Virus record (IMG/VR): IMGVR_UViG_3300027896_000016
DNA from: an uncultured virus (IMG/VR IMGVR_UViG_3300027896_000016)
Taxonomy: Duplodnaviria > Heunggongvirae > Uroviricota > Caudoviricetes
Length of the DNA: 64,000 nt
Strand: one strand, 5' to 3'
Within the stretch, counting starts at the first letter, position 1. Each line of letters opens with the position of its first letter. Of this stretch, positions 6,584 to 64,000 are shown in pieces. Position numbers and translations under genes: made by a program. The notes under the pieces are model-generated. The model did no database searches, was not told where the DNA came from, and was given only the letters and a program-made list of their open reading frames with translations.

Positions 6584-6843
6584 AAGTAATTCTTGGCGAT
6601 CAAATTTATTCAGTATACTGGAAATATTTAAGTTCAAAAAGAATTCGATGCACAATAGAAGGTGCGAATAGATTTATTCTTGGTGATGGCGATTCTATGT
6701 GTATTGGCAAGGATCAATTCAATAAGAACACTGGCCGAAAAATTTCTATGAGAAAGGCACTTAAGGCTGTTTTCCCGTATAGTGACCATATTCGTCGCAA
6801 ATTTTGGGAATCTTATTTGGAGATGCGTCATGGCAAATGGTAA
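6580..6843 (+). CDS. Conserved phage hypothetical protein
   Basis: C-x-x-x-D-Q-F-N-K-x-x-G-R-K-I-S pattern typical of small phage proteins; overlaps neighbours. Confidence 0.6.
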   Translation: MKVILGDQIYSVYWKYLSSKRIRCTIEGANRFILGDGDSMCIGKDQFNKNTGRKISMRKALKAVFPYSDHIRRKFWESYLEMRHGKW

Positions 6844-7291
6844 AATGCCGCAAAAACAGCCGACTGATATTCAGCTAAACGCCTTTATTGCCGAAAAATT
6901 AATGGGGTATAAATGGCAGGTATGTAATCGTAAAATTTGGACAGAAAGACATTTTATGTATAACCGATTATATTTGGTTTCAATATACCCTTCTGGTCTT
7001 TGGAAAGGGCCGCGAAAAAAGTGTAGAAAGGCAGTTAATTGGTATTATCAGGTTCCGAGTTATTGCCAAAATTATACTCTAATTTTTGCGGTTATTGAAC
7101 AACTCAAAAAGCGTCAATTGTTTAATATATTAATTAAAATCTGGACAAAAGAAAAACATTGGGAAGTTTTTGTTATGGACAATAATAAACTCGCCACTCA
7201 AATTAATGCCTCATTGCCCCGCGCTATTTGTTTGGCGCTTTATAATCTCTATAAAGGAGAGAAAAATGTCGCGCAAAAAGCCGCCAAGTGA
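6830..7291 (+). CDS. Phage ABA-sandwich (BC1872-like) domain protein, paralog 1
   Basis: LNAFIAEKLMGYKW...VPSY...SLPRAICLAL signature shared with 7266, 28135, 35470 and 35855. Confidence 0.7.
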   Translation: MANGKMPQKQPTDIQLNAFIAEKLMGYKWQVCNRKIWTERHFMYNRLYLVSIYPSGLWKGPRKKCRKAVNWYYQVPSYCQNYTLIFAVIEQLKKRQLFNILIKIWTKEKHWEVFVMDNNKLATQINASLPRAICLALYNLYKGEKNVAQKAAK

Positions 7292-7685
7292 CACGGAAGT
7301 AAATGCTTTTATTGCCGAAAAGATTTGTGGGTGGAAGTGGAGAGTTTTTGATAATGAAATATATTTAGTTAGTATTTCTTTGAATAAAGAATATTGGGGA
7401 AGGCCGCGAAAGAATTTCAAAAAAGCAAAATGTTGTTATAGTTTTGTTCCTAATTATGTGGATAATGTTCCTAGTGTGTTTAATGCTATCGAACATCTCA
7501 AAAAGACCCGTCCAAGATTTCATATTGATATTTTTTCTTATGAAAACAATGGGAAATATAAGGTTGTTGCATGGGAAAGCGGTAGTTTTCATTATGAAGA
7601 TGTAAGTTATTCTGTAACAAATCAATCTCTTCCCCGTGCTGTCTGTCTAGCACTTTACGGATTATACCATAATGTTAGTTTATAA
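7266..7685 (+). CDS. Phage ABA-sandwich (BC1872-like) domain protein, paralog 2
   Basis: VNAFIAEKICGWKW...VPNY...SLPRAVCLAL; AGGAG RBS. Confidence 0.7.
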   Translation: MSRKKPPSDTEVNAFIAEKICGWKWRVFDNEIYLVSISLNKEYWGRPRKNFKKAKCCYSFVPNYVDNVPSVFNAIEHLKKTRPRFHIDIFSYENNGKYKVVAWESGSFHYEDVSYSVTNQSLPRAVCLALYGLYHNVSL

Positions 7686-8220: not shown

Positions 8221-8334
8221 ATGAAATCGAGACAATCTCTTGCTGCTAAGAAGGCATGGGTTACTATTAGGGCCAATGCTCAAAAGAGGTCGAATGCCGC
8301 CAAGAAGGCGTGGGTTACAAGAAGAAAGTCATGA
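8221..8334 (+). CDS. 37-aa basic peptide with a duplicated AAKKAWVT motif
   Basis: AGGAG RBS; MKSRQSLAAKKAWVTIRANAQKRSNAAKKAWVTRRKS*; ATGA overlap with the helicase start at 8331. Confidence 0.6.
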   Translation: MKSRQSLAAKKAWVTIRANAQKRSNAAKKAWVTRRKS

Positions 8335-11240
8335 AAAATTTCTTCGAGCAATTAAAGACTAGAGACAAGTTGTGCGAGGATAAAGATAAGATAATTATAC
8401 GAGTCATAGAAAGTCTTAAGATTCATAAGGATTTTCATGCCTTGCTAATGCCAGCTTTGTATGGTAGAGAAGTCAGAATTCTAAAATCAATGGGTGTTCC
8501 GTGTAATCAAATGTTTGCTATTGAACAAGAAGGTGATAGGCATGACGAAATAGTTTCTTGTAATCGGGAAGATAGAAAAGAATATAATGGAATAGTTACG
8601 ACTCCAAAGGCAATGGGCGCAAAAGAAGCGATTGAATGGGCCTATACTTTTAGGCAGGGGAAACCGTTTGATTTTATATATTTGGATTTTTATGGTCGTT
8701 GTAGGTTCAATTATCATTATGAGATAATTAAGAGAATCTTGAAGTTAAAGATGTTGGCTCCTAATGGTGTTATGATTTTGACATTTAGTGATGAGACGCG
8801 ATGTACTTCGGAAGTTTTGGAGCAAAATGATAAGCTAGGAGAAATATTTAGTGGTAGGCATTTGTCCGAGATTTTTTTGCTAGAAGCAGTAAAAGAAGTA
8901 AAGTGTCAGTATCCTAGACTAAATACGGAAAAATATGTTTCTAAGGGTTCTCGCCAAATACCAATTAATTATTATACAACTATAGCCGATTGGAGAGAAC
9001 CAAATTCTCTGCAAGAATGGTCTGATTTAACATCAAGTCTTTTGTATGAAGTTGTTGGATATAAAGGTAACGATAAGATTGATTTGGACGATTATTATTT
9101 AAGTCCTAAATATAAGATTTTTCAAGAAAAAATGATCGCTGATATTAAAGAAGAACTTAAGAGAAAGAAATCGTGTTCTATTGAACTATTCTGTGGTGGT
9201 GGCAAGACATTTATAGCTGGAAATGTTGCTATGGATTATAAGAAAGTATTGATGGTATCCCCTAATGTAATGGCGTTTGAGGGTTTTAATCGTGATTTAA
9301 AAGTAGCGGCGAAAAAATTTGGTCGAGAGATAGAGATTAATTATGAAAATGGTATAAAGATTTGTGATCTAAATATAATTACACCGTTTAAACTTTATAA
9401 TGAATGGAAGAAAGAATGTTCATACTTGAAACCTTTTGAAATGTTCATGCGTGAAGTAGATTTGGTAATTTTGGATGAAGTTCATAGGTATCCAGAAGAT
9501 CCAGAAAATACCTTACAGGTTATTAGCAAAGTAAAAGAGATAATAGAACAGTTTGTGCCGAATAGCCATGTATTAACAATGTCTGGTACTCATTTTAGGT
9601 CGGATGGAAAGAATCCGTATGGCATTAAAGATCCAGATATAAAACATTCGCTGTGTGATTTAATTACAGAAAATTGTGCTCCCGAGATGTTCGGTTATAC
9701 TGTGCCGATTCAAGTGGATGGTATTACAAAAGTTAGTAGATCTTCCGGTATGGTCAAATTTAAGACCAGATATTTAGAGAGATATCATAATGAAATTAGT
9801 GACATAATAAGTCGTGTTTATGGGATGGACCCAACAGCTTCTCATTGTATTTTCGTAAGTCATGTCGAGAATGCCAAATTATTAAGAGATGCTATTAATA
9901 GTAAGTTAGGTAAAAAATTTGAAGTTTTGGATCATAAAACTCCCAATAATGTTAGGCAAGAAATTATAGCCGAAATCAATAAAGGTGAGTTGCTTGGATA
10001 TATTACTGTTCAGGTTGGTTCAGAAAGTCTTAATATTCCGAGATTAAAATATTGTCACTTGGTAGCTAGAATTATTTCTGATGTTAAATTAATGCAATGC
10101 ATAGGAAGAGTAGCTAGGTCACACAAAGATAAAAATTGTTGCGTTGTTATTGATTATCAGGTTATGAAAGATAAGATCAAAAAATTGGCAAATGGTATCA
10201 AAACTATTAATGATATTCGTCGTGTCGGCAATGGTAATAATAAACCGTTAAGTAAGAATATTTCATTTGGTGGAAGGATATTTTCAGGTGAACCTATTTC
10301 TCTTAGTTTGGGTACTTATGAAGGATGGATTTTGTCTGAACAATATAAAAGATCAAATCTTAATTGGATAGTAAAATATAATGAATTAGTTAAATGGTTG
10401 AAAAAGTATAATAAATACCCCTCATATAGGTCTACAAATAAACAAGAAAGATTATTATATGTATGGTATAATATGCAAAAATGCGCTAAGAGAGGGAAAT
10501 ATTGTTATTTGTTAACTTTAGAACAAATAAAAATGATGGAACAATTGCCTGGATGGAAATGGGTAGATGATCGTGAAGAGAGATGGATAAATAATTATAA
10601 TAAAGTTTTAGATTTTTTAGAAAATTATAATAAATATCCGTCAATAGGTTCTAAAAATAAAGAAGAACAAAAATTATATAGATGGTGTAATCAACAAAAA
10701 CGTTCTAAAAAAGGTGTTGGTTCTTATTTATTGACTCCAGAACGTGTAAAAATGTTAGAGCAATTGCCTGGATGGAAATGGGTGCATAATATAGATGAAG
10801 AATGGGAAATTCATTATAATAAATTGTTGATATTTTTGAAGAGTCATAATAATAAATATCCTTCTAAGAAATTGGGGGATATAGAAGAACAAAAATTATC
10901 TAAATGGGTAAATACTCAAAAAAGATCCAAAAGAGGACAGGGTGAATGTTTAATGACTCCAAAGCGAGCAATGATGTTGGAGCAGTTACCTGGATGGAAA
11001 TGGAATAATGATTGGGATGAACAATGGATGGTTCATTATGATGAATATTCATCTTTTTTGAAGAATTATGATAGGTATCCCTCTCAATATTCAAAAAATC
11101 AAGAAGAACGAAGATTATCTACATGGTATAATAATCAACGACAGAAGAAAAGAAAGGGATGTTTATCCTCAGAATATAATGAATTGTTAGAAAAATTTCC
11201 TGAGTGGCAATGTCAGTCTCATAAGAAAAGAGCAAATTGA
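8331..11240 (+). CDS. SF2 (DEAD/DEAH-like) helicase with an N-terminal SAM-methyltransferase-like domain and four C-terminal helicase-associated (HA) repeats
   Basis: LFCGGGKT, ILDEVH, MSGT, QCIGRVAR; N-terminal FAIEQE...FDFIYLDFYG; four W..Y..L..F...Y..YPS....E..L..W...Q....LEQLPGWKW repeats. Confidence 0.85.
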   Translation: MKNFFEQLKTRDKLCEDKDKIIIRVIESLKIHKDFHALLMPALYGREVRILKSMGVPCNQMFAIEQEGDRHDEIVSCNREDRKEYNGIVTTPKAMGAKEAIEWAYTFRQGKPFDFIYLDFYGRCRFNYHYEIIKRILKLKMLAPNGVMILTFSDETRCTSEVLEQNDKLGEIFSGRHLSEIFLLEAVKEVKCQYPRLNTEKYVSKGSRQIPINYYTTIADWREPNSLQEWSDLTSSLLYEVVGYKGNDKIDLDDYYLSPKYKIFQEKMIADIKEELKRKKSCSIELFCGGGKTFIAGNVAMDYKKVLMVSPNVMAFEGFNRDLKVAAKKFGREIEINYENGIKICDLNIITPFKLYNEWKKECSYLKPFEMFMREVDLVILDEVHRYPEDPENTLQVISKVKEIIEQFVPNSHVLTMSGTHFRSDGKNPYGIKDPDIKHSLCDLITENCAPEMFGYTVPIQVDGITKVSRSSGMVKFKTRYLERYHNEISDIISRVYGMDPTASHCIFVSHVENAKLLRDAINSKLGKKFEVLDHKTPNNVRQEIIAEINKGELLGYITVQVGSESLNIPRLKYCHLVARIISDVKLMQCIGRVARSHKDKNCCVVIDYQVMKDKIKKLANGIKTINDIRRVGNGNNKPLSKNISFGGRIFSGEPISLSLGTYEGWILSEQYKRSNLNWIVKYNELVKWLKKYNKYPSYRSTNKQERLLYVWYNMQKCAKRGKYCYLLTLEQIKMMEQLPGWKWVDDREERWINNYNKVLDFLENYNKYPSIGSKNKEEQKLYRWCNQQKRSKKGVGSYLLTPERVKMLEQLPGWKWVHNIDEEWEIHYNKLLIFLKSHNNKYPSKKLGDIEEQKLSKWVNTQKRSKRGQGECLMTPKRAMMLEQLPGWKWNNDWDEQWMVHYDEYSSFLKNYDRYPSQYSKNQEERRLSTWYNNQRQKKRKGCLSSEYNELLEKFPEWQCQSHKKRAN

Positions 11241-11260
11241 TAATCTCACAATGACATTCC

Positions 11261-12299
11261 ATTTTGACGGGCTTGATCTTTGCTGTTCTGGCCAAACGAC
11301 AATCCGTCTCACGTTTTTCTGGACCTGTTCATTTCATCTTGACTCGCCTTGCCGCGTTCTCCTTATTCTCATTCGTACTTTTTGACGTAATTTGCCTGTC
11401 TCTTTTGCTCCCACCTGTTTTGACGTGCTTTTTTAGAGTGCCCGATTTGATCTTTACTAATTGACTAGCTGTTTCGTTTTACTGCACACTAACCTATTTT
11501 GACAAATTAACTCAGACAGCCGCCGCGCAAATTGACATGCCGTCTCACAGTTATTGCAAGTTATTTTGATCCGGCCAAAGGACAATATCTGCTCATTTCA
11601 GCCAAACATTTTGACATGTCTTGACTGGCCGACCGCAGCTAATCATTTTGACGAGCTAAGTCGCGCTAGGTTGAAATTTTGCCCGCACTATTTGACCTGC
11701 TTGTTTTCATCGCGTTGACCTATTTTGACTGGCAAGACTAGATCTTTTCGCATTAATTGACGTTCTGTTCCCTCTTTGTTTTGTCCATTTGACAAATCAT
11801 GTTGCCTTTTGCCAATTCGTTTGACTGGTCGAATTCTGCTTCGTTGCACCAAGCATTTTGACTCATTATCTCATGTCGAATCGACCGTATTTCTCCATTT
11901 TGACGATTCGGGCTATTGCGCACTACCCATTTTGACAAGCTTGCACGGCACGGTACACGTTTGAATTTGGCCCATTTTGACGTACTCTACTCAACTGTTT
12001 GCATCTCCACTTGAATTGCGCTATTTTGACGAGTTGAGCCGCTTTTTGTTTTACTTGGCTCCAAATGACGATTTACGTTAGCCAAACCGGATCGGACCAT
12101 TTGACGAATCGGGTCCGCACTTTCAATTTTATCCTAATTGACACTCTACCTTGTTCTGTTTTCAACTAGTTCATTTTGACTCGCTAACTTCGGCTCAATC
12201 AATCTACTTGACGTTTCATTTTGTTTCTTCCCAAGCAGTTCTCTAATTGACGGATTAAAACGATTTGTGTTCACACTAATCCGCGTTTACCTAATTGAC
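11261..12299 (+). repeat. Non-canonical tandem array: 27 units delimited by (W)TTGAC, each made of 5-8 NNN-YY pentamers; putative guide-RNA array
   Basis: 28 delimiters (25 TTGAC, 3 AAAnGAC variants); unit lengths cluster at 32-33, 36-39, 41-45 and 47-49 nt; e.g. AAATC ATGTT GCCTT TTGCC AATTC GTTTGAC. Confidence 0.85.
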
Positions 12300-12345
12300 A
12301 TTGTGTCTATTAGGCCGATTAACCTATCTAACAGGAGAAAGAAAC

Positions 12346-13161
12346 ATGGCACCGTCTATTCTTTCGCAGTTGAAGGAGAATTTCAAGGACCGCATGACCG
12401 TTACTGTTGAGTTTATCGACAAGGTTTATGGTGGTATTCCGAAGTGCAAGAAGTCGCTGGATTACTTTATGCAGGAACGGTGTATGTCTGATGAACAGAA
12501 GAAGTCCTTAGAGGAACGCTTGAGTATTCAGGGTATGACCGATGAAGAGAAGCGAATCGCTATGGATCTTAATTGGAACGTTTTTGAGAAGGATTTGCAA
12601 GGTAATTGTTGTCTTTGGACTGGCAATATCAAGGCTATGCTGCGGGAGATTTTTACGACCTTGGGCCTTACTCAGAAGCGGCATAAGAGCGGGGAAGATG
12701 CACACGCGGGCGGCAAACAGACTTTGCAGCATGGCGTCAGCGTTTGTTCCTGTAATCCCGGCGATTATCTCAGGATTCCGTTTCTTATTGACGGCAAGTC
12801 TCAGGCGGCTTCTCAGGGGTATGACGACAGGATTAAGCATATCGAAGACAAGGCGGGCAAGCGTAGCGTTATCGGTCGTCATGATTATTTCGTGACTCCG
12901 ACTATGCAATTTGTTTTGAGTTGGCCGCGAGACGGTGTTTATAGTGCGGCGGATATTATCAAGGCTCTTTGTTTCTGTGAAGACGATGGTCTTGGCGCTT
13001 GCCGCAGTCAGTGTTTCGGTCAATTCAAGGTTATCAAGATTGATTATGACGGTGAAGAGATTGACAAGATTATTACTATGGATGATTTGAAGAGATATAA
13101 GCCCGAGAAGAAGGCTGAAGAGGGCGAGAGTAAGAAGGGCAAGAAGGCAAAGGCGGGTTGA
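12346..13161 (+). CDS. Stand-alone Cas7/RAMP-superfamily-like RNA-binding protein (271 aa)
   Basis: AGGAG RBS at 12333; RRM beta1 MTVTVEFIDKVYGG; NIKAMLRE helix (cf. the S.KG.LR motif of RAMPs); C-terminal Gly-rich loop GLGACRSQCFGQFKV. Confidence 0.8.
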   Translation: MAPSILSQLKENFKDRMTVTVEFIDKVYGGIPKCKKSLDYFMQERCMSDEQKKSLEERLSIQGMTDEEKRIAMDLNWNVFEKDLQGNCCLWTGNIKAMLREIFTTLGLTQKRHKSGEDAHAGGKQTLQHGVSVCSCNPGDYLRIPFLIDGKSQAASQGYDDRIKHIEDKAGKRSVIGRHDYFVTPTMQFVLSWPRDGVYSAADIIKALCFCEDDGLGACRSQCFGQFKVIKIDYDGEEIDKIITMDDLKRYKPEKKAEEGESKKGKKAKAG

Positions 13162-13230
13162 TTCAACGGAATAGGGAGCAACTGGACGCAAAATTATTAT
13201 TTAGTACAGCATTGCGCCCTTTGATCCCAA

Positions 13231-13315
13231 CTTGGCGTAGCTTAAATATAAAGCGTGGCCATGCTGGCAAGTGCCAGCACATGAGATGCAGGTGTAACCC
13301 CTGCCGCCAAGTCCA
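13231..13315 (+). ncRNA. tRNA-like element with a non-canonical anticodon arm and encoded CCA
   Basis: Acceptor CTTGGCG/CGCCAAG + T + CCA; D-stem GCTT/AAGC; T-stem GCAGG/CCTGC with loop TGTAACC; anticodon position holds a TGCTGGC-AAGT-GCCAGCA hairpin. Confidence 0.6.
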
Positions 13316-13317
13316 TA

Positions 13318-13424
13318 GTCAAGTCCATTAGCTAGTAGTCAAGGCCAGAACGGGAAAAACTTTACCATCAGCAGTTTTCCCTGCAAATCGCGCCAGTGCC
13401 TCATTACTAGTCAATGGGCTTGAC
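13318..13424 (+). ncRNA. Putative long-stem structured RNA
   Basis: GTCAAGTCCATT..CTAGTA pairs with TACTAG..AATGGGCTTGAC; inner GGGAAAA(A)C/GTTTTCCC hairpin. Confidence 0.5.
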
Positions 13425-13430
13425 GTAGTA

Positions 13431-13542
13431 GCGGAGAAGGGAAGAGAAATGCCGTAGTAACTGGCTAGGTGTGGGCATTCCCCTTACGAGGAATCCGAAA
13501 GGATTGTCGCATTAAGGCTGAAACCAGTTACCCCTTCTCTGT
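13431..13542 (+). ncRNA. Putative multi-helix structured RNA
   Basis: GGAGAAGGG/CCCTTCTCT, GTAACTGG/CCAGTTAC, CCT-TACG-AGG, AATCC-GAAA-GGATT, and AATGCC/GGCATT (possible pseudoknot). Confidence 0.5.
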
Positions 13543-13567
13543 TTTATTATTTTAAGGAGAAATCGCT

Positions 13568-15798: not shown

Positions 15799-16020
15799 GT
15801 CAATGACCAGTTTCTAAAATGGTTTGAAAGTCCCTCCAAAGGGCAACTTTCAACGTAAGCGTTGACTAGACAGATTGTAACTGAACAATCTACCCGTGGA
15901 AGGGTGAAACACGTTGCGAATGCTACCCTAGTTTGCATCCTCTGTGATTGTCAGTGTCGAAGGGTTGTACAAATGTTAGAGTTTTTTTTGAATTACTTAC
16001 AATAATTCAAAGAATTTTGG
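15799..16020 (+). ncRNA. omegaRNA scaffold of IsrB copy 1
   Basis: Non-coding leader highly conserved between the two copies, with pairing-preserving changes; boundaries approximate. Confidence 0.7.
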
Positions 16021-16028
16021 AGAAGCAA

Positions 16029-17065
16029 ATGAAGAAAGTAATGGTTCCTGTAGTAGACAAAAATAATAAACCTCTTATGCCAACAACATGTTGGAGAGCT
16101 TCCAAGTGGATTAAATCCCGAAAAGCTACTCCATTTTGGAAACATGGTATATTTTGTGTTAGATTAAACGTAGAACCTTCTGCAAGAAATATGCAACCTA
16201 TAGCAGTAGGTATTGATCCAGGTAGTAAAAGAGAGGCATTTACTGTTAAATCAAAAAAGAAAACTTATTTGAATATTTTGACACATGCTGTAGATTGGGT
16301 TAAAAAGCAGTTGAAGTACGAAAGACTATGCGGAGAAGTCGCCGATTTAGAAAAACTCCATATAGAAAATCAAGATTTAATAGAAAAGGAAGAGGATTAC
16401 CGCCTTCTACCAAAGCTAGGTGGCAATTAAAACTCAGGATTGTTAATAAACTTATTAAAATATTTCCAATTTCCCAATTTGTAGTAGAAGATATTAAAGC
16501 TAAAACAAAAGGTCAAAGAAAATGGGATTCTGTTTTTAGTCCTTTAGAGTATGGGAAAACATGGTTTTATGAAGAACTTCGAAAAATTGCTCCTGTTAAA
16601 CTTATGCAAGGTTGGGAAGTAAATAATTTAAGAAATCGACTTATGTTAGAAAAGACTCATTCAAAGTTGGAGGAAGAATTTTCTGCCCATAATGTTGATA
16701 GTTGGGTATTGGCATGGAGTAGTGTCGGTGGAAAAGAAGAACCTGATAATGAATCTTTGTTGATTTTAGTTCCATTAAAATTTCATAGAAGACAATTATA
16801 TAAATTACAATTTTCTAAAGGCGGAAAACGTAAACTTTACGGTGGAACAAGAAGTATGGGATTAAAACGAGGGAGTTTAGTTGAGCATTCTGATTATGGT
16901 CTTTGTTATATTGGCGGAACATCTAAAAGGGGAATAAGTGTACATTCTCTTGTGGATGGCAAAAGAATTTGTCAATATGCTAAATTAGAGGATATCAAAT
17001 TTAAATGTTTTAGTAGCTTTAGATTTTACAGAAAGGAGGATATCGTTGATCCGTTTGTTGCATAA
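16029..17065 (+). pseudogene. isrB: IsrB (HNH-less IscB homolog) split by a 1-nt frameshift at about 16302-16306
   Basis: KPLMPT, GIDPG (RuvC-I), Arg-rich bridge helix, VVEDIK (RuvC-II), SAHNVDSW (RuvC-III); no HNH; ORFs 15948-16430 and 16328-17065 align end to end with intact copy 2. Confidence 0.8.
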
Positions 17066-20363: not shown

Positions 20364-20834
20364 ATGATTAAACAATGCAAGCTAGTTTTCGACCCAATTA
20401 TCAAAACATTATGCCCAAAACCCTACTATAATCATCCAAAAGGCTGTCCGAATTATGGCAAGAAAATCGGATGTCCACCTGATACGCCCGATATAAATTT
20501 TATTCTAAATTTGGCCCGACCAGTTTATGTGATTTACAATAAGTTTAATTTGTTAAATCATATTCATAATATGGAGATATTACATCCTGATTGGTCTGAT
20601 AGGCAATTATATTGTTGTCTATATTGGCAACCTAGAGCAAGAAAAGTTTTAAATGAAATGATTTATAATTTTTTGTGTCTGAACAAAGATTATATAGTTT
20701 TTCGTGTGCCAGAAGCATACGGTGTAAACGTAACTCAGACAATGCGCGATATTGGCGAGATTTTGGAGTGGCCACCGATTAATTTCGCCTATCAAGTGGC
20801 CTTGGCGGGAATACCGATTGGAGAAAAGAAATGA
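20364..20834 (+). CDS. DUF2284-like predicted metal-binding protein
   Basis: GCPNYGKKIGCPP...PEAYGVNVTQT. Confidence 0.65.
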   Translation: MIKQCKLVFDPIIKTLCPKPYYNHPKGCPNYGKKIGCPPDTPDINFILNLARPVYVIYNKFNLLNHIHNMEILHPDWSDRQLYCCLYWQPRARKVLNEMIYNFLCLNKDYIVFRVPEAYGVNVTQTMRDIGEILEWPPINFAYQVALAGIPIGEKK

Positions 20835-28452: not shown

Positions 28453-31400
28453 CAAATGAAGAAGTTCAAAAACTCGATCATGGTCTTTATCGTATTTTTT
28501 GGAAAGATGGCAGTACTTCTCTTGCCGCGATTGGTAGCAATAAAAAGGGCAAACGTTGGCTTGCACCGACAAATTGGGTTACTGTTTCTAGTTTTGATAG
28601 ACATGTTGTGGATTGGTCTTTTATAGAAAAAGTCGTTTTACTGGCGAGACAAGGAGAAAATATGATCCCATTTACTCAGTTTGTTAGAAACATGAATTAT
28701 CCGCCTATTCCTGTAAGTCCGATGTTTATTGCGATAAATGGTCACTGGTGTTTGTGTTTGAACGGTCCAGATGATGAAGATAATATTTGGCGATTAGATA
28801 AGGTGATTATGTGGCAACGTTTTATTGTAGCTTGTACGGCTGAAGTAGAGTGGCTAAAGATCGCAGAAGAAGAAAAGAATCGACGTAGACAAATAATTGC
28901 TGGATCTTATAGGGAAAGTATTGATAAAGAAAATGAGTGTCGTTCAAATGCTAAGTTGTGGCGAGAATGGGGTAATACTTTTGTAGAATTAAAAATAAGT
29001 GAGAAACAAAAGAGGAAAATATGAAAAAGATGATTTTGGAAATAATTGACGATCATTCAGGTGGAATAAAATTTACCGAGTTAATTTGTGACGTAACTGA
29101 GTATTTGTGTAAAGAGAAGAAATCTATTTCGCCAGATTTATCAGATATATTAGAACAGGTAATTTCTGAAATGTCAGAATTAAAGATTTTGGATTATGGT
29201 ATGATAATGGGTGATACTATAAGACATAAAATGTTTGTATATAGACCATTAGATAATGGTATTAATCTTTTTGTAAAAGAAGTAAATAAAGCATTGAATA
29301 AGGAGAAAAAGTAATGACACAAATGCCAGTACTTATTCATTTAGAATGTCATGAGCATAATTGTTCTTTGTGTCTTCAGGCTCATATTGATTTGGGTAAT
29401 TATTTATCTGAGCAAACTGGTACACGTAATGAAGTGGATCATCTTGCTAAATATCGAACATGGTTGGAAAAGAGATTAAATAAGACAATGGAAACAGAAC
29501 ATGGTTGGGCATGTCCTGAAGTGTTTGAAGAAGATAATATTAAGGCTTATATTGTAGATTGGCAAAATAAAATAATGGAAATACACGAAAGAAAAATTAT
29601 TGGTAGTGTGATGGAGGATAAATAATGAATCTCGAAATTACCGACGAAATCATCGATTTATTTATGGATAGATTTTGTCATTGCGGCACTGAAGGAACAG
29701 TTACTTGTGGTTTTTGCGGCAAGAAATTTGAAGGTTCAAAAGACGAATCTGTTTCTTTTGGCGAATTTGAAGGTAGACCGATAGTTTACGAATGTCATTG
29801 TGATAAAGTTAAAAAGTATGTTGCATTTCTTGTCTCATATCGCCGCGAAATTACGGAATTTTTCTTATATCTTTCAAATCGAGAACGTGCCGATGCCGAA
29901 ACTTTATATCAGGATTTGAAGATAGTTGACAATAATAACGAGAAAGTGGCAAAGATTGGAATATCAATTTCGCGTGAAGAGGCGTTGAAAATAAGTAGAC
30001 AAGTTCTTGAACGAGCAGAACGAGAACGTTTGGAGCAAAAATAATGTCTCACCCAATAATCCCGATAAGCCCTAGATTCAATAAAATCGACGGCAAGGAT
30101 TATTTCTTTCTTTATGGCATGGGCCTACAAGAAATCGACCGTCTGGAAGGCTATGCCATAGATGATTGTGCGAATTGTGCGTATACGACATATGAAACTA
30201 AATATTTAGAAACTCTTGCTTTAGAATGGTTAGATTGGGCTAGGGAAAAACTTAGCGAGGGGTATGTATCATGAAACGATGCTGCAAAGATTGCGAATAT
30301 TCACAATTATATTGTCCTGGTAAATCTGATGATTCTTATCAGTGTAGACGACATGCTCCTGTTTTTCCGGGTAATAGTGCATTACCAGCATTTCCATTAA
30401 TGGGCGGCAAAAGTTGGTGCGGCGATTTTAAAAAGAAGAAAGAAGGCGCAAAATGAAAAAGTGTTGCGTAATGTGTGAATACATTTTCAGTGTACAAAAT
30501 AGAGTTGTTCTTACGGAAAATTCTGAAGTAAAAATAACTCCCGAGCAAAGAAAAATGCTTGAGAATTTTGTCCATTATGAGTGTACAAGATATCCGCCTC
30601 CATTTCCTACAATAATGAAACCTGATAATTTGTTGTGTGGCGAATTTAAAAAGAAAGGTACAAAATGACGTGTAAATTTTGCGGTAAGGAAATTGACAAG
30701 AATAACAAGAGTTATATGGAAATTGGTACTACATATATGGATGAAAATGTCCATCTTTATATTAACGAAGGAGATAAACTTTTATATAAAAATGAAGATG
30801 ATGAAAGTAATTGGATTTTAAAGTTTTGCGATCTTGTTTGTTTAATTTTCTGGATTCGGCGGCTAAAGGAATTGGCGAATGATAGTAAGTAAATTAATTG
30901 AAATTCTCAAGGAAATGCCGCAAGATGCTCCAATTGCATATATTTATAATGGTAGACTTTATTCTTTAACTAAATTTAAAGCATGTTCTGGGTTTGAAGG
31001 GAATAAAACACTTGTTGTATTTGATATTGGGTCTGCAAAAGATATTTGTGCTGTGGTGAGTAAATTTGGCGAGGAATTTATTAATGATGACAAAAACTAC
31101 TGGTGAGAGTATAACAATCTGCGATTTTTGTGGTAAGAAAATTGGCAAAAGAAATAAAAAATATATAACATTATGCGCGTTTTATTTTAATGACGATTTT
31201 GCTATTTATATTGGTCGTAAAAAGGTATTTCATAGCTCAGATAATGCTAATCTTTGTGATAAAAAGTGTCTTGTTTCTTGGCTTGATAAACTAGAAAATA
31301 CGGAAGGAGTTGGGTATCCAAGTGGCCACAAAACAAACAACGCCTGAACAAATATTTAAACTAGAGACGTATATGAAGCCCTATCAGTACGAGAACGAAT

Positions 31401-37613: not shown

Positions 37614-37872
37614 GTCAATGGCCAGTTTCTAAAATGGTTTGAAAGTCCCTCCAAAGGGCAACTTTCAACGTAAGCATTGACTAGACAACGATTGGAAAGG
37701 AGGTTAAAGACAAAAGAAAATTCCAATCAAACTGAACAATCTACCCGTGGAAGGGTGAAACACGTTGCGAATGCTACCCTAGTTTGCATCCTCTGTGATT
37801 GTCAGTGTCGAAGGGTTGTATACATGATAGAGTTTTCTTTGAATTGCCTAAAACGATTCAAGGAATTTTGGA
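37614..37872 (+). ncRNA. omegaRNA scaffold of IsrB copy 2, with an extra hairpin relative to copy 1
   Basis: Conserved leader; insertion GATTGGAA...TTCCAATC near 37690-37728. Confidence 0.7.
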
Positions 37873-37879
37873 GAAGCAA

Positions 37880-38917
37880 ATGAAGAAAGTAATGGTTCCT
37901 GTAGTAGACAAAAATAATAAGCCACTTATGCCAACTAGTTGTTGGAGAGCTTCCAAGTGGATTAAGTCTAGAAAGGCTACTCCATTTTGGAAACATGGTA
38001 TATTTTGTGTACGATTAAACGTAGAACCTTCTGCCAGAAATATGCAACCTATAGCAGTAGGTATTGATCCAGGTAGCAAAAGAGAAGCATTTACTGTTAA
38101 ATCTAAGAAGAATACCTATGTAAATATTCTGACACATGCCGTTACTCATGTTAAAGATGTGATGGAAGATAGAAAAAGTGCTCGTAAAAGTCGCCGATTT
38201 AGAAAAACACCATATAGAAAACAAAGAAAAAATAGGAAAATGGGTGGACTACCACCTTCTACTAAAGCTAGATGGCAGTTGAAACTTAGGGTTATTAATA
38301 AGCTTATTAAAATTTTTCCAATTTCTCAATTTGTAGTAGAAAACATTAAAGCCGTAACAACTGGACAAAAAAGATGGGATTCTAATTTTAGTCCATTAGG
38401 GGCTGGCAAGAAATGGTTTTATGGCGAGCTTAGAAAAATTGCTCCAGTTAAGCTTATGCAAGGTTGGGAAACTTGTAATTTAAGAAATCGACTTGGACTT
38501 GAGAAAACTTATTCAAAATTGGATGAAAAATTTTCGGTACATAATGTTGATAGTTGGACTTTAGCTTGGAGTGGGGTTGGCGGAAAAGAAAAACCAGATA
38601 ATGAATCTTTATTAATTTTAGTTTCACTAAGATTTCATCGAAGACAATTACATTATTGTAATTTTTTTAAGGGGGGAAAACGACGTTTATATGGAGGAAC
38701 AAGAAGTTTAGGGTTAAAACGGGGAAGTTTAGTAGATCATTCAGAATATGGACTTTGTTATGTTGGTGGATCATCTAAAGGTATGATAAGTTTACATTCA
38801 CTTGTAGATGGTTGCAGAATTTATCAAAAAGTTAAATTGAAAGATATTAAATTTAAATGTTATAGTAGTTTTAGATTTTATACAGAGAAAGATATTACTG
38901 ATCCTTTTGTTGCTTAA
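37880..38917 (+). CDS. isrB: IsrB RNA-guided nickase (345 aa, intact)
   Basis: KPLMPT, GIDPG, RKSRRFRKTPYRK, VVENIK, SVHNVDSW; no HNH domain. Confidence 0.85.
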   Translation: MKKVMVPVVDKNNKPLMPTSCWRASKWIKSRKATPFWKHGIFCVRLNVEPSARNMQPIAVGIDPGSKREAFTVKSKKNTYVNILTHAVTHVKDVMEDRKSARKSRRFRKTPYRKQRKNRKMGGLPPSTKARWQLKLRVINKLIKIFPISQFVVENIKAVTTGQKRWDSNFSPLGAGKKWFYGELRKIAPVKLMQGWETCNLRNRLGLEKTYSKLDEKFSVHNVDSWTLAWSGVGGKEKPDNESLLILVSLRFHRRQLHYCNFFKGGKRRLYGGTRSLGLKRGSLVDHSEYGLCYVGGSSKGMISLHSLVDGCRIYQKVKLKDIKFKCYSSFRFYTEKDITDPFVA

Positions 38918-58127: not shown

Positions 58128-58724
58128 ATGGGCGCACAGACAGTTACCGAAATGATTAATTTTGCTGGGGATATAATCCAAAATTGGGCAAAGTCCCAAA
58201 ATTTTCCTGATACTAATGAAGATATATTTAATGGTCTTGTAGATATGGTCGGGCGTTTGGCAAGAATACGTAAGAATGAATCCAGAAGTAATTTTCCATT
58301 GCCGCACGATGTAGAGATTGTTTGTTCACACATAATTGTTTATATATTGCGCTACGGTATAAAGAATTGTTCTAATCTTGGGAATTGTGTTGAGGCTATA
58401 ATGCAAGGTAATTTTGGACTTAGTGATACCGAAAAAGAAGATTATAATATTGGTAAATTGCCGATTAACATTAGTAAGAATACTTCGCCAACTTTAACTT
58501 TAGAGGATAAAATTCATGATTCTGGAGGACAAAATACCAGCACAATCCCCCAAACCGGAAACGACCCAATTACCCCAAGTATCACAATCGCCCCAGGAGT
58601 TATCTCAACAAGCACAACCGGAACAAACGTCCCAACAACCTATATCGTTAAAAAGATCCCGCCGAAGAAAATATCCAGAGGCAAAAAATCGGGAAGAAAT
58701 CGACGATCTAAGAATAAAAGGTGA
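58128..58724 (+). CDS. Hypothetical protein (3' end overlaps the recombinase gene)
   Basis: 198-aa ORF. Confidence 0.5.
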   Translation: MGAQTVTEMINFAGDIIQNWAKSQNFPDTNEDIFNGLVDMVGRLARIRKNESRSNFPLPHDVEIVCSHIIVYILRYGIKNCSNLGNCVEAIMQGNFGLSDTEKEDYNIGKLPINISKNTSPTLTLEDKIHDSGGQNTSTIPQTGNDPITPSITIAPGVISTSTTGTNVPTTYIVKKIPPKKISRGKKSGRNRRSKNKR

Positions 58725-59478
58725 GTTTGACAAAATCGTCTTAGAGGCCGATGTTATCAGAATCGTCAATTATTTTAAAGAACGCGGGAAAGAAGGAAAA
58801 TTAAACAAGCGTTATTTCGGCATGTTTTGTATTGCGAATTTTGGTTTGCGCGTTTCCGAATGCTGCCTATTAAAAAGATATCATTTGGAGACATGTAGGG
58901 CGGGACATGTTACAATTCCGACTTTGAAGCAACGGGACAAGAAGGAATTGCGTAAACTAAAGCGCCAAAGGGCTTTAGAGAGGAAATTAGGGCTGGATAA
59001 AAATTCCTTGAAACAGCCGGTAGAACCTGTCCAAGCTGTACCTGGAAGTGAAGCTGTCCCGATTATGCCTGTTATGCCTTTGATTAAGGTCCAAAAAGCT
59101 ATAGACATGCGTATAAGTTGCTCAAGCAATTTGTGTGATACTATTGATAATTATCTCTTTGCATTGTCTAAATTGTATCCAGAAAACAAAGAAAATTGGG
59201 TATTTCCTTCGGGGAAGGAGGGTAGAAATCATCTAACTCGCTTTGCATTTGAAGAGGCATTCACCGACGCAATTTTAGATTTGGGCCTTAACCGAAAATA
59301 TTCTGTTCACGCCTTGCGTCACTATCGGGGTACTTTACTTTATAGAATAACACGGGACTTAATATTGGTCATGAAAGAAATGCGACATGCTGATTCAGCA
59401 ACAACGCAAATTTACGTGCATATTGTGGAAAATGAAGAGAAGATGAAGCAATTACGTGAATTGGAGGGAATCGTTTGA
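58516..59478 (+). CDS. Tyrosine recombinase/integrase (Xer-like catalytic domain)
   Basis: GLRVSE (R), LKQR (K), HALRH (H-x-x-R), MRHADSATTQIY (H, Y); GAGGA RBS. Confidence 0.9.
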   Translation: MILEDKIPAQSPKPETTQLPQVSQSPQELSQQAQPEQTSQQPISLKRSRRRKYPEAKNREEIDDLRIKGEFDKIVLEADVIRIVNYFKERGKEGKLNKRYFGMFCIANFGLRVSECCLLKRYHLETCRAGHVTIPTLKQRDKKELRKLKRQRALERKLGLDKNSLKQPVEPVQAVPGSEAVPIMPVMPLIKVQKAIDMRISCSSNLCDTIDNYLFALSKLYPENKENWVFPSGKEGRNHLTRFAFEEAFTDAILDLGLNRKYSVHALRHYRGTLLYRITRDLILVMKEMRHADSATTQIYVHIVENEEKMKQLRELEGIV

Positions 59479-61731: not shown

Positions 61732-62667
61732 CCGAAAAATCAGCCGAATGCGCAAGACGTAAAAAGACCGTATGCTGTTTTCTTTATGTAAATAGTGAGC
61801 CGATATGTATTAGTTGTTATAATATTAAGTATAGTTACCAAACATTTACTGGTATAAAATGTCAAAGATGCGGTAATTTTGTTTGGTCCATTACTTTTCG
61901 TGATAATATGTTATTGTGCAATAATTGTGCTAAAATTTTGGAAAATTTGTCTTTGTCTCCACCGAAAGGTTGGCAATGTCCAATTTGCGGCACGATAATG
62001 AGTCCTTTTGTTGAGACATGTGTAAATAATTGTGGCAAGAAAGGTGGTGAAGATGACAACTGGCGTTCAGGTTCAACCGGATGAAAATGGCACCTATAGT
62101 TTATTTAAATTGTCGCCAACGGGCAAAAGTTTAAAGTTGGCCGAAAATATTAAGACCAAAGAAATTGCCGGTTATCTGGCAAAATGTGGGGAAGTTATAG
62201 ATTTGCAAACACAAATTGCATTTCTTACAAAGATTGTGACGTTTTGGGAGGGGTGCAAAATATTGTCTATGGATCATTTGCCGACGTGTCACTCTAAGAC
62301 AAATAAAGAAAGTAGAATTTGTAATTGTGGCCACAAAGAGGCTATGGCCCGTGTTAGGGTAATTATTAAGGAGAACTAATGCGAATAAAAATCCCAAAAG
62401 AAATAGTTCTTGATAACGGTTATAAAGTAATTATTAATTTAGGTATTAATATTTTGAAAGGTCTTAAGGCAGAGGCTTTAGAAATTATTGAATTAGAGAT
62501 CTATAAAGATAATGTTCAGGTGGCGCGGCGATCAATGACGCCCGCCGAAATAATTCCAAAAGAAATGATGGACGCATTTAATGCTTATTCGACCAAGACG
62601 ACAAAGTGATAATCTGTGAGCCGTCGCAACGATTGCAAGCCGATTGGGCGTTATTGTTTTATTTTAG

Positions 62668-62919
62668 CTAGACCAAATGTCTTTGCCAATGCTTTTCATC
62701 CAAATCACCCATTGCCCAATTTTTATGAGCCAAAATTCTTAGACTTATTGAGATTAGTTTATCTAGTTCTTTTTCTGTAGGGCATCCGTGTTGTCTAAAT
62801 ATTAGAATCCAGCCAAAACATTTTGGGCATTTTGTGACTATACCGTATTCATCTTCATAGAGAATAACCGAATCTTTTGGCAAATTACAAAGAGGGCATT
62901 CGCTGTATTCATTGTTCAA
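62668..62919 (-). CDS. HIT-like/Zn-binding small protein
   Basis: CPLC..ILYEDE...LIFRQH. Confidence 0.45.
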   Translation of the reverse strand: MNNEYSECPLCNLPKDSVILYEDEYGIVTKCPKCFGWILIFRQHGCPTEKELDKLISISLRILAHKNWAMGDLDEKHWQRHLV

Positions 62920-63268
62920 TTAGCTTCCTTTCATCTATTGTGAAAGGTCCAGAGGTTTTGGTCTTAACGCACAAAATCGCTAGATCTTTCACCGTTAGCC
63001 TATAGTCTTCTTTTGCGTCGGCATTGTTCAAGAAAAAGTCTTTGCCGTATAATGTTTTGCTTTCAGGTTCCCATATTAGACTATAATCTTGCGTATTAAG
63101 TTCGACCCAGGCATGACCGCCGCGTTTGTATTGTCCGGTATTGGCGTCTTTTACTCTTGCCGTGCCGTGAATTACAAAAACGCTGTCAAAATCGTCCAAG
63201 TAGGGAAGATTTTTGTCTCCCGATATGACGGCTTGCATGACTGTATGAAAACAGTGACCGTAGGGCAT
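62909..63268 (-). CDS. Hypothetical protein (C...H...GHAWVE transglutaminase-like triad candidate)
   Basis: GHCF, VIHG, GGHAWVE, IWEP. Confidence 0.5.
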   Translation of the reverse strand: MPYGHCFHTVMQAVISGDKNLPYLDDFDSVFVIHGTARVKDANTGQYKRGGHAWVELNTQDYSLIWEPESKTLYGKDFFLNNADAKEDYRLTVKDLAILCVKTKTSGPFTIDERKLIEQ

Positions 63269-63287
63269 TGCGCGCCACCAATTTTTG

Positions 63288-64000
63288 CTATTCTATCTTT
63301 ATGGTTTCTTTTCTTAATTTTTGCAAGCCATTTTCGAGAAATTCGGTCATTCCGTGCATACCAACAGCCGTTATTAAATTAGTTAGTTTATAGAAATTTG
63401 CCGCCATTCTTGAATGATAATCTCCAAGGGCACTTTCAAAAGCCCTGCCGCAATCGCCATAATCTGTCACGTAATGCGTACATTCGTGAACGGCGACTTC
63501 GTAGATACGTTCAAGATCCTGCCTGTCAGTGGGCCAAAAAATTTCATCGCCGCGCATTGGATTGAACAATATCCAATTATTGTCTTTTATTTGCAATCCA
63601 GCCAATTCTGAGTCTAGGACAAAGCCGGTATTGAAAGTTGTCTTGTCGCAGTTCATTTGTATAAGTATAAATCGTACTAACTCTGTCCAGAATTTTGCAA
63701 GACGCAGCGTATTTGGTTTCATATTTTCTAAATGTAATCCAATAGGTATCTTAGTATCGCCCTTATTATTTAAGATTAAGAATTCTGGCTTCCAAGTTAG
63801 TAATTTAAGTGCCGATTCTATATGACCTTGGCCAACGAATTCTATGTCTAGCAAGACTTTTGCTATATCATAGCTAACATTTGCGAGCAAATTATCATCT
63901 TTTCTTTCAGCAAAATGGCCATATGCCTGTGCTGCAATAGCGCCCAAAATTTTCGGCGGAATGATTCTTACTTTTCTTTTCTTGATAAATTCTGTTTCTG
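63288..64000 (-). CDS. C-terminal part of a larger protein with a HExxH motif (5' end outside the window)
   Basis: Frame open to the window edge (ETEFIKKRKVRIIPPKILGA...); VAVHECTHY. Confidence 0.6.
   Translation of the reverse strand, partial: ETEFIKKRKVRIIPPKILGAIAAQAYGHFAERKDDNLLANVSYDIAKVLLDIEFVGQGHIESALKLLTWKPEFLILNNKGDTKIPIGLHLENMKPNTLRLAKFWTELVRFILIQMNCDKTTFNTGFVLDSELAGLQIKDNNWILFNPMRGDEIFWPTDRQDLERIYEVAVHECTHYVTDYGDCGRAFESALGDYHSRMAANFYKLTNLITAVGMHGMTEFLENGLQKLRKETIKIE

Follow-up and report, generated by a model that had tools for sequence, protein, structure and literature searches.

Phages with VIPR systems carry a lone RAMP protein, Vipr (~20 kDa), which binds guide RNAs termed vrRNAs (bioRxiv 10.64898/2026.04.26.720920, 10.64898/2026.04.26.720927, and 10.64898/2026.10.15.759431). 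According to the available parts of these preprints, a vrRNA consists of 9-16 GGY/NN pentamers (Y, pyrimidine; N, any base) and a structured 3' tail (e.g. 10.64898/2026.04.26.720920). Experiments on phage SUSP1 showed that one protomer occupies each pentamer, that GGY is flipped into pockets of the protein, and that NN pairs with double-stranded DNA, one target base being skipped per step; the targets that the complex silences are competing phages and satellites. Seven VIPR types, including "staggered" head-to-tail arrays, were distinguished in 10.64898/2026.04.26.720920, the Methods of which list alternative NNNGG, YNNNG, and NNNNG repeats and allow "a related consensus." The available part of the Evo-PIN survey (10.64898/2026.10.21.760802) reports 99 period-5 clusters, of which 21 are built on other fixed trinucleotides. 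Here, we describe a noncoding array with a five-base rhythm and the gene next to it in a 64,000-nt stretch of DNA (the window) from an uncultured virus of the Caudoviricetes (IMG/VR record IMGVR_UViG_3300027896_000016). By analogy with the published systems, positions 11252-13161 quite probably comprise a VIPR-type guide array and a Vipr-like protein gene of a large freshwater phage.

A Delimited Array with a Five-base Rhythm

The putative guide array spans positions 11252-12299 (+ strand) within a 1.1-kb noncoding gap and is composed of 28 delimiters bounding 27 units of 32-49 nt. Each unit comprises five to eight NNN-YY pentamers followed by a delimiter of 7-8 nt with the consensus C-ATTTTGAC, and the units abut. 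The first-pass annotation, made by a model from the letters of the sequence, had listed 28 delimiter ends, and every one was found: GAC was present in 28/28 and TGAC in 26/28, the two weak delimiters being CAAACGAC (end 11300) and CAAAGGAC (end 11583). Three more TGAC motifs, ending at 11255, 11625, and 11719, were not on that list. The 5' end of the array is a one-pentamer stub on the + strand, caatGAC-ATTCC-ATTTTGAC. The terminal delimiter, read directly from the sequence, is TAATTGAC (12292-12299, + strand). Because no phased unit follows it, the array has a closing delimiter at either end. The 43-nt unit at 11301-11343 (+ strand), the second in the first-pass numbering, is a typical example: AATCC GTCTC ACGTT TTTCT GGACC TGTTC ATTTC, followed by ATCTTGAC.

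Unit lengths agreed exactly with those annotated for all 27 units (32 nt, seven units; 33 nt, two; 36-39 nt, nine; 41-45 nt, six; 47-49 nt, three). They were quantized as claimed, 20/27 being 5n+2 or 5n+3 compared with 40% expected by chance. The mode was 5n+2 (12 units) with 5n+3 second (eight units), and the 1-nt register slips that had been noticed by eye were real.

The phased base counts and the comparison of autocorrelation with shuffled sequence, which had been proposed as a check, both gave a clear answer. When the units were phased on GAC, pyrimidines were counted at positions +4 and +5 in 25 and 27 of the 28 cases, respectively, at +9 and +10 in 25 and 27, at +14 and +15 in 21 and 25, at +19 and +20 in 24 and 22, and at +24 and +25 in 24 and 22. 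Position -8 relative to GAC was a pyrimidine in 28/28. The lag-5 autocorrelation of the pyrimidine track was 0.223 compared with 0.00 ± 0.03 in 1000 dinucleotide-preserving shuffles (z 7.5; top shuffle, 0.145), and the period-5 power per unit was 21.3 compared with 6.6 ± 1.3 in 300 shuffles (top, 11.1). None of the periods 3, 4, 6, 7, 8, and 10 rose above its highest shuffle, the nearest being period 4 (9.15 versus 10.18). YY occupied pentamer positions 4-5 in 112 of 151 pentamers (74%, previously estimated as "roughly 70%"), whereas 38% is expected from composition. Over the whole array, pyrimidines made up 85% of position 4 and 91% of position 5. Thus, the five-base rhythm and the delimiters were confirmed in full.

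Tandem Repeats Finder reported no repeat array in the window because the units are too dissimilar. A search against Rfam at E ≤ 1 gave no match between 10500 and 14000, and neither tRNA nor tmRNA genes were found in the window. The period-5 detector also flagged 20441-20620, which lies inside an open reading frame (ORF) and by eye contains no array.

A Lone RAMP Protein Is Encoded Beside the Array

A gene at 12346-13161 (+ strand) starts 46 nt after the array. It is preceded by the Shine-Dalgarno-like sequence AGGAGAA (12333-12339, + strand), which ends 6 nt before the ATG at 12346. The deduced 271-residue product, P0001, carries a lysine-rich C-terminal tail and had no Pfam or PHROG match. 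An AF2 model built from an alignment of homologues (pLDDT 76.9, pTM 0.72) was compared with the PDB by Foldseek, yielding 161 matches at E ≤ 1e-3, among them the type VII Cas7 (9j9e_D1, E 1.2e-8), Cmr4, Csm3, and Cas7-11. VIA-align, an aligner independent of Foldseek, placed Cmr4 (6s6b_I, Z 11.6) and Csm3 (6ae2_B, Z 11.3) at the top. All top matches of both aligners were Cas7-type RAMPs. Weak profile signals pointed in the same direction: Csm4/Csm3 at the glycine-rich loop (E 0.06-0.6) and, among 113 family members, sub-threshold Pfam matches to Cas6_C (28), RAMPs (nine), and CRISPR_Cas6 (eight). As judged from the model, the gene product is a Cas7-family RAMP of the Cas7/Csm3 type.

RAMP G-loops follow the consensus G-h-G-x5-G-h-G. 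The sequence GLGACRSQCFG of P0001 fits it and is part of the glycine-rich loop GLGACRSQCFGQF (residues 215-227; 12988-13026, + strand), the predicted RNA-binding loop of the RAMP, which aligns with GVGDWRPR-FGRF of SUSP1 Vipr. The protein had 21 homologues at 36-51% identity with the common C-terminal motif DDGLGACRSQGFGKF. No other Cas family was detected among 49 window ORFs scanned. The modeled protein is therefore a predicted lone RAMP outside a CRISPR-Cas locus, as is Vipr.

The Array Accompanies the RAMP Gene in Related Loci

Profile-guided scans recovered five viral and 25 metagenomic loci, and tblastn added Microcystis phage Mae-JY09. These 31 loci and the window made up 32 sources, several of which were one contig present in two collections, so that about 17 distinct arrays were represented. 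A period-5 array lay directly upstream, downstream, or on both sides of the RAMP gene in 28/32 sources. Two of the other four (L122 and L140) were cut inside the end of the gene, and two (L125 and L126) contained no array in the available DNA. Wherever the array was located, its pyrimidine-rich strand was the strand of the gene (28/28). An all-against-all comparison of the ORFs within 4.5 kb in 25 loci revealed no other conserved neighbor; only the RAMP gene was common to them.

The relatives showed the rhythm in a stricter form. Units of GC-rich relatives measured 28, 33, 38, 43, or 48 nt, and 5n+3 units amounted to 16/18 in L130, 19/24 in L131, and 11/11 in L143; the period-5 register accordingly shifted by 3 per unit. 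Position 5 was C in 75-100% of steps and position 4 was C or T in 65-96% (C at positions 4-5, 52-100%), whereas positions 1-3 were unconstrained. The sister contigs L134, L136, and L137 had some units in common, and others differed as whole units. Between near-identical copies of the same unit in sister contigs, 19 of 20 differences fell on NNN, one on position 4, and none on position 5, the pairs not being fully independent. Thus, the fixed bases are constrained, and the units turn over in a cassette-like manner.

The family is large and viral. Its profile matched 881 representative clusters at E ≤ 1e-3, the nearest ESM-Atlas clusters were 94-98% viral, and homologues were found on IMG/VR contigs, one of which measured 320 kb. 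Searching phage records with the RAMP protein by tblastn gave a single weak match, Mae-JY09 (E 8e-3), which gained meaning because an array follows the gene. In this cultured phage (PP395641.1; L151), the distant homologue (22% identity) is encoded at 37713-38459 and annotated as hypothetical protein WWT39994.1. A CCGAC-delimited array of C-phased pentamers follows at about 38460-38860, at the genome end, and neither gene nor array is annotated as a system. Other searches were negative: region 8310-13161 had no blastn match in 50,697 phage records, single-protein scans of IMG/VR with the RAMP or the upstream helicase found no relatives, and a search of the GTDB genomes with the profile was likewise empty. 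When IMG/VR was scanned at the DNA level for three spaced copies of ATTTTGAC, 120 loci emerged; the examples looked at were simple tandem repeats without relation to the array.

In loci with a downstream array, a GC-rich hairpin (e.g. GCCCCCTGGG...CCTGGGGGGC) separates the first delimiter from the stop codon of the gene (L123, L134-L137, L139, L144, L130, L131, L138, and L149); it has a T-rich tail in L130, L138, and L149. This hairpin could be a terminator, a stabilizer of the mRNA 3' end, or a processing signal.

Comparison with VIPR Systems

The locus resembles the described VIPR systems, as far as the available parts of the preprints go, in encoding a lone small phage RAMP outside CRISPR-Cas, in flanking noncoding pentamers with fixed and hypervariable positions, in having several guides per locus, and in the position of the array at the side of the gene. 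It also differs from them. In VIPR, the strand of vipr carries G-rich GGY/NN, whereas here the gene strand carries NNN-YY, i.e. two fixed and three variable positions. The opposite strand of the window reads RR-NNN (R, purine) with an unconstrained third base; in the relatives it reads GG-NNN, corresponding to the NNNGG format of the preprint. The guides are shorter (5-8 pentamers versus 9-16), 27 of them stand in one array, and the protein is larger (271 residues versus ~195 for SUSP1 Vipr). It may be that this format is already depicted in Figs. S17 and S18 of 10.64898/2026.04.26.720920, which present alternative logos and staggered arrays. The non-canonical Evo-PIN clusters are similar in that period-5 intergenic arrays with a motif other than GGY/NN lie beside a Vipr-like fold. 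Their motifs keep a fixed trinucleotide (GAC/NN, CAC/NN, WGT/NN, and TGH/NN) in about 10 repeats, and the available Evo-PIN text makes no mention of a fixed dinucleotide with a variable triplet or of delimiter-punctuated arrays.

Several observations weigh against membership of the locus in the VIPR class. At the level of the array, position 3 was a pyrimidine in 36-54% of steps, so the third base is unconstrained, whereas the canonical motif has three fixed bases, and the fixed bases are pyrimidines on the gene strand, whereas the vipr strand of SUSP1 is G-rich. In place of a structured 3' tail of ~40 nt there is a delimiter of 7-8 nt. The window array is also noisier than those of its relatives, with YY instead of CC and the scattered unit lengths given above. 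When the NNN triplets were read as in-frame codons, six stops were counted in sense and six in antisense compared with 8.2 and 6.6 expected, i.e. stops were not depleted. At the level of the protein, the link to SUSP1 is marginal: hhalign aligned the C-terminal strand-helix-G-loop segment with SUSP1 Vipr at E 0.14 and 0.0038, and a BLAST search with SUSP1 Vipr against the small database of 174 family proteins gave one full-length bridge, P0131 (E 0.004, 22% over 219 columns). Residues Asp177 and Trp178 of SUSP1 Vipr contact two guanines according to the preprints; the aligned positions are Ala and Cys/Ser/Asp/Asn in this family. P0001 itself has Thr92 where 20/22 homologues have His (WHGN) and Cys223 at a near-invariant glycine of the G-loop (RSQGFG). 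Alongside the change from CC to YY in the array, these two substitutions may represent protein-RNA co-variation or drift. A vap accessory gene was not conserved beside the RAMP gene among the ORFs within 4.5 kb in 25 loci; the preprint describes vap as "typically" adjacent, and its absence is thus compatible with VIPR membership.

The target searches count on the same side. The 27 window guides, compared with the rest of the window on both strands with 0-3 bases skipped per step, matched no better than shuffled guides. A search of 147 guides in the same manner against 1.5 Mb of local DNA found only the twin arrays; the next best match was 14/15, judged to be at chance level without a shuffled control.

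The first-pass annotation had taken YY as a protein-bound scaffold and NNN as the variable information of a discontinuous guide. A protein-bound fixed dinucleotide with informative variable bases is the published VIPR logic, and the proposal is thus essentially right by homology: the RAMP fold, the partnership of gene and array in 28/32 sources, the concentration of differences at NNN, and the precedent of VIPR speak for it, whereas the enrichment of targets that it had led one to look for did not appear in local DNA. A reading of raw sequence without tools thereby recovered the logic of a guide-RNA class that was published only in 2026. The window adds a member to a class already in print: a 27-guide array in a low-GC freshwater phage, from a branch without experimental characterization. 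Together with its relatives (about 17 distinct arrays, strict 5n+3 units, a CC-ATTGCGAC delimiter, and the cultured carrier Mae-JY09), it provides a comparative set that can be used to work out strand, pairing rule, processing, and targets.

Proposed Mechanism and Coding Strand

We infer the following course of events, in which transcription, strand, processing, binding, pairing rule, target, and role are all modeled on VIPR. The array would be transcribed, with the + strand favored, and the transcript would be cut at or near the ATTTTGAC delimiters. Each resulting RNA of 32-49 nt would be coated by a protein filament with one protomer per pentamer. The two fixed bases (YY here; CC in the GC-rich relatives) would be buried by the protomers and the variable triplets left exposed, giving 15-24 informative bases per guide. 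Gapped pairing between the exposed bases and the DNA of a competing phage or another mobile element would then lead to silencing.

The guides would come somewhat more probably from the gene (+) strand than from its complement. In favor of the gene strand, the genes on either side of the array run in the same direction, and only 11 and 46 nt separate them from it. Promoter and terminator scans of the window yielded nothing useful; no promoter-like site was present in the 46-nt gap, and thus an upstream transcript reaching the RAMP gene would contain the + strand of the array. The co-orientation of gene and pyrimidine-rich strand in all 28 arrays lends further support, as does the SUSP1 locus (KT454805.2), in which the presumed vipr ORF and the GGYNN tracts share a strand. 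The ORF at 28474-29061 (minus strand) was taken to be vipr from its size, its position, and its flanking GGYNN tracts. The tolerance of T for C in a genome of 36% GC is in keeping with a pocket that excludes purines, as the published Y3 pocket does. In the relatives, a + strand promoter-like site was found just upstream of the array in L128 (0.6 expected by chance), and no fitting promoter site was found in L146 and L121. By eye, the SUSP1 locus (L152) shows a near-consensus TTGACA-17-TATACT promoter at about 29330-29290 (minus strand), before the upstream GGYNN tract and on the vipr strand.

The delimiters of the relatives suggest a further feature. Their consensus is CC-(A/T)(A/T)TG(C/T)(G/A)AC, and in L138 and L143 it is CC-ATTGCGAC. 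In Thermus thermophilus, the last 8 nt of the CRISPR repeats become the 8-nt 5' handle of the CRISPR RNA (crRNA), as stated in the available part of PMC12102369. ATTGCGAC is identical to this handle in 8/8 positions. The other 18 arrays scored 3-7/8, with 4/8 for the window consensus, and the likeness may thus be due to chance. If the guides were transcribed from the gene strand, each of them would start with a crRNA-like tag. As a tentative model, which we rate below an even chance, the large branch of 881 clusters would produce gene-strand guides of the form 5'-tag-(NNN-YY)n, the tag being a crRNA-like element of 7-8 nt (A-U-U-G-C-G-A-C or AUUUUGAC). Each protomer would bury YY in two pyrimidine-selective pockets and present three contiguous bases per step to the target, amounting to a mirror-image, C-anchored 3-of-5 version of the VIPR code. 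If true, the branch would bear directly on the relationship between VIPR and CRISPR, and its C-anchored, crRNA-tagged guides would make it the closest known link between VIPR arrays and type III crRNAs.

The same system could instead be read from the opposite strand, which we consider possible but rather doubtful. The guides would then be antisense RNAs, (RR-NNN)n or GG-NNN in the relatives, with GUCAAAAU as the 5' element of each unit. This fits the NNNGG format listed in the Methods of 10.64898/2026.04.26.720920 and the fact that G is the fixed base in all vrRNAs characterized in the available preprint text, and the T-tailed hairpin between the gene and a downstream array in L130, L138, and L149 could end the gene transcript before it. 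The uniform co-orientation in 28/28 arrays and in SUSP1 speaks against it. All ORFs of the window taken as genes from position 1 to about 62.6 kb are on the + strand, listed minus-strand ORFs being short or overlapping + strand ORFs, and the array fills the space between two + strand genes. From the gap before the Vipr-like gene into the array, no minus-strand promoter-like site was found, and sites at 12386-12358 (within that gene) and 11210-11183 (past the upstream end of the array) do not change this. Moreover, the loop residues with which SUSP1 Vipr contacts G have no conserved counterparts here.

Alternative Explanations

Apart from the choice of strand, the window might hold a decaying or inactive copy, whose formerly functional array and protein would now be drifting in a genome of low GC content. 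This is unlikely, and it does not exclude that the locus belongs to the VIPR class. The relaxation of the fixed positions from C to C/T, the jitter of unit lengths, and the deviation of P0001 at two near-invariant positions would be expected from decay. Against these stand an intact, full-length ORF that keeps 23 invariant residues, the 85 and 91% pyrimidines at positions 4 and 5, and the intact GAC in all 28 delimiters; T for C could also be tolerated by a pyrimidine-selective pocket in a genome of this composition.

A function as RNA decoy appears very improbable. The units would mimic crRNAs through the 8-nt tag and, with the Cas7-like protein, mis-assemble or soak up type I or III complexes of the host in the manner of an anti-CRISPR, without guiding anything. 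The identity of ATTGCGAC with the handle in L138 and L143 and the type III/VII Cas7 proteins as closest folds are in line with this idea. However, hypervariable triplets, conserved fixed bases, and diversification by whole units are expected for guides and needless for decoys, and the tag matches less well in the other 18 arrays scored and in the window.

It is highly improbable that the array is a DNA-level replication element such as origin iterons, loading sites for primase or helicase, or a partition site, in which the 8-bp motif would be bound by protein and the rhythm would reflect DNA shape. The array does lie among genes for primase-helicase, ligase, UDG, helicase, and DnaE, and the delimiters read GTC on the minus strand, which is a recognition triplet of T7-type primases. 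On the other hand, homologous arrays go with the RAMP gene and not with replication genes, no other neighbor being conserved in 25 loci, and each unit has contents of its own, with cassette-like turnover. Strict 5n+3 lengths with a fixed dinucleotide every 5 nt are unlike known iterons, and the published RNA mechanism explains both.

The likeness to CRISPR-Cas types III and VII lies in the closest folds of the protein (Cmr4, Z 11.6; Csm3, Z 11.3; type VII Cas7, E 1.2e-8), in the periodic grip of a Cas7 filament on its guide, and in the resemblance of the relatives' delimiter to the 8-nt handle. Cas7 filaments of these types have a 6-nt periodicity with contiguous pairing segments of 5 nt. The spacers of such systems are acquired by Cas1-Cas2, and the effectors are multi-subunit complexes with Cas5, Cas10, and Cas11. 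None of Cas1/Cas2, Cas5, Cas10, and Cas11 was found among the 49 window ORFs scanned. CRISPR repeats measure 36-37 nt in the available part of PMC12102369, whereas the window delimiter measures 7-8 nt. The "spacers" of the window are constrained every 5 nt and are thus not raw protospacers. A type III-like CRISPR array was rejected on account of the short delimiter, the null result of Tandem Repeats Finder, and the lack of another cas gene in the 49 ORFs.

TIGR-Tas systems are phage-borne arrays of short-period guides outside CRISPR with a Nop-domain effector. They differ from the window locus by their 18-nt period and their effector and have neither a RAMP nor a pentamer code. In the available Evo-PIN text, they form the 18-nt period class (10.64898/2026.10.21.760802). 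Sigma-70 -35 boxes were dismissed because TTGAC is confined to this low-GC copy and the link to the RAMP gene would be unexplained; Chi-like or primase sites, rut sites, and TRAP-like triplet binding likewise leave that link unexplained.

Genomic Context

The window is part of a 134-kb contig. A gene for an SF2 helicase with three HA domains (8310-11240, + strand) precedes the array, and 11 nt separate its stop from the first GAC of the stub. This helicase gene was not conserved beside RAMP homologues. Other genes of the window encode primase-helicase, ATP ligase, UDG, a DnaE-type polymerase, HNH endonucleases, and an integrase. From this content the window appears to belong to a large phage, the viral or mobile-element setting of VIPR. 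The sole sequencing run that matched the stretch was of DNA, is labeled freshwater metagenome, and may be the source sample.

Directly after the Vipr-like gene, the 406-nt intergenic region 13162-13567 possibly encodes a structured RNA. Its minimum free energy was -133.9 kcal/mol compared with -112.1 ± 5.6 kcal/mol for shuffled sequences (z -3.9; 0/100 shuffles as good); Rfam gave no match to the region at E ≤ 1, and the pentamer rhythm was absent from it.

At the far end of the window (62600-64000), the coding strand and the GC and AT skews switch to minus from about 62.6 kb, without a second array. A tyrosine-integrase-like gene lies at 58516-59478 (PHROG 216, E 6e-21). At 6782-7685, two adjacent overlapping ORFs (169 and 171 residues) each contain a Phage_ABA_S sandwich domain just below the Pfam cut-off. 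Directly upstream of the DnaE polymerase gene, an RRXRR/HNH endonuclease gene (15948-17065) is split into two overlapping ORFs of 160 and 245 residues, and an intact paralogue of 372 residues is encoded at 37799-38917.

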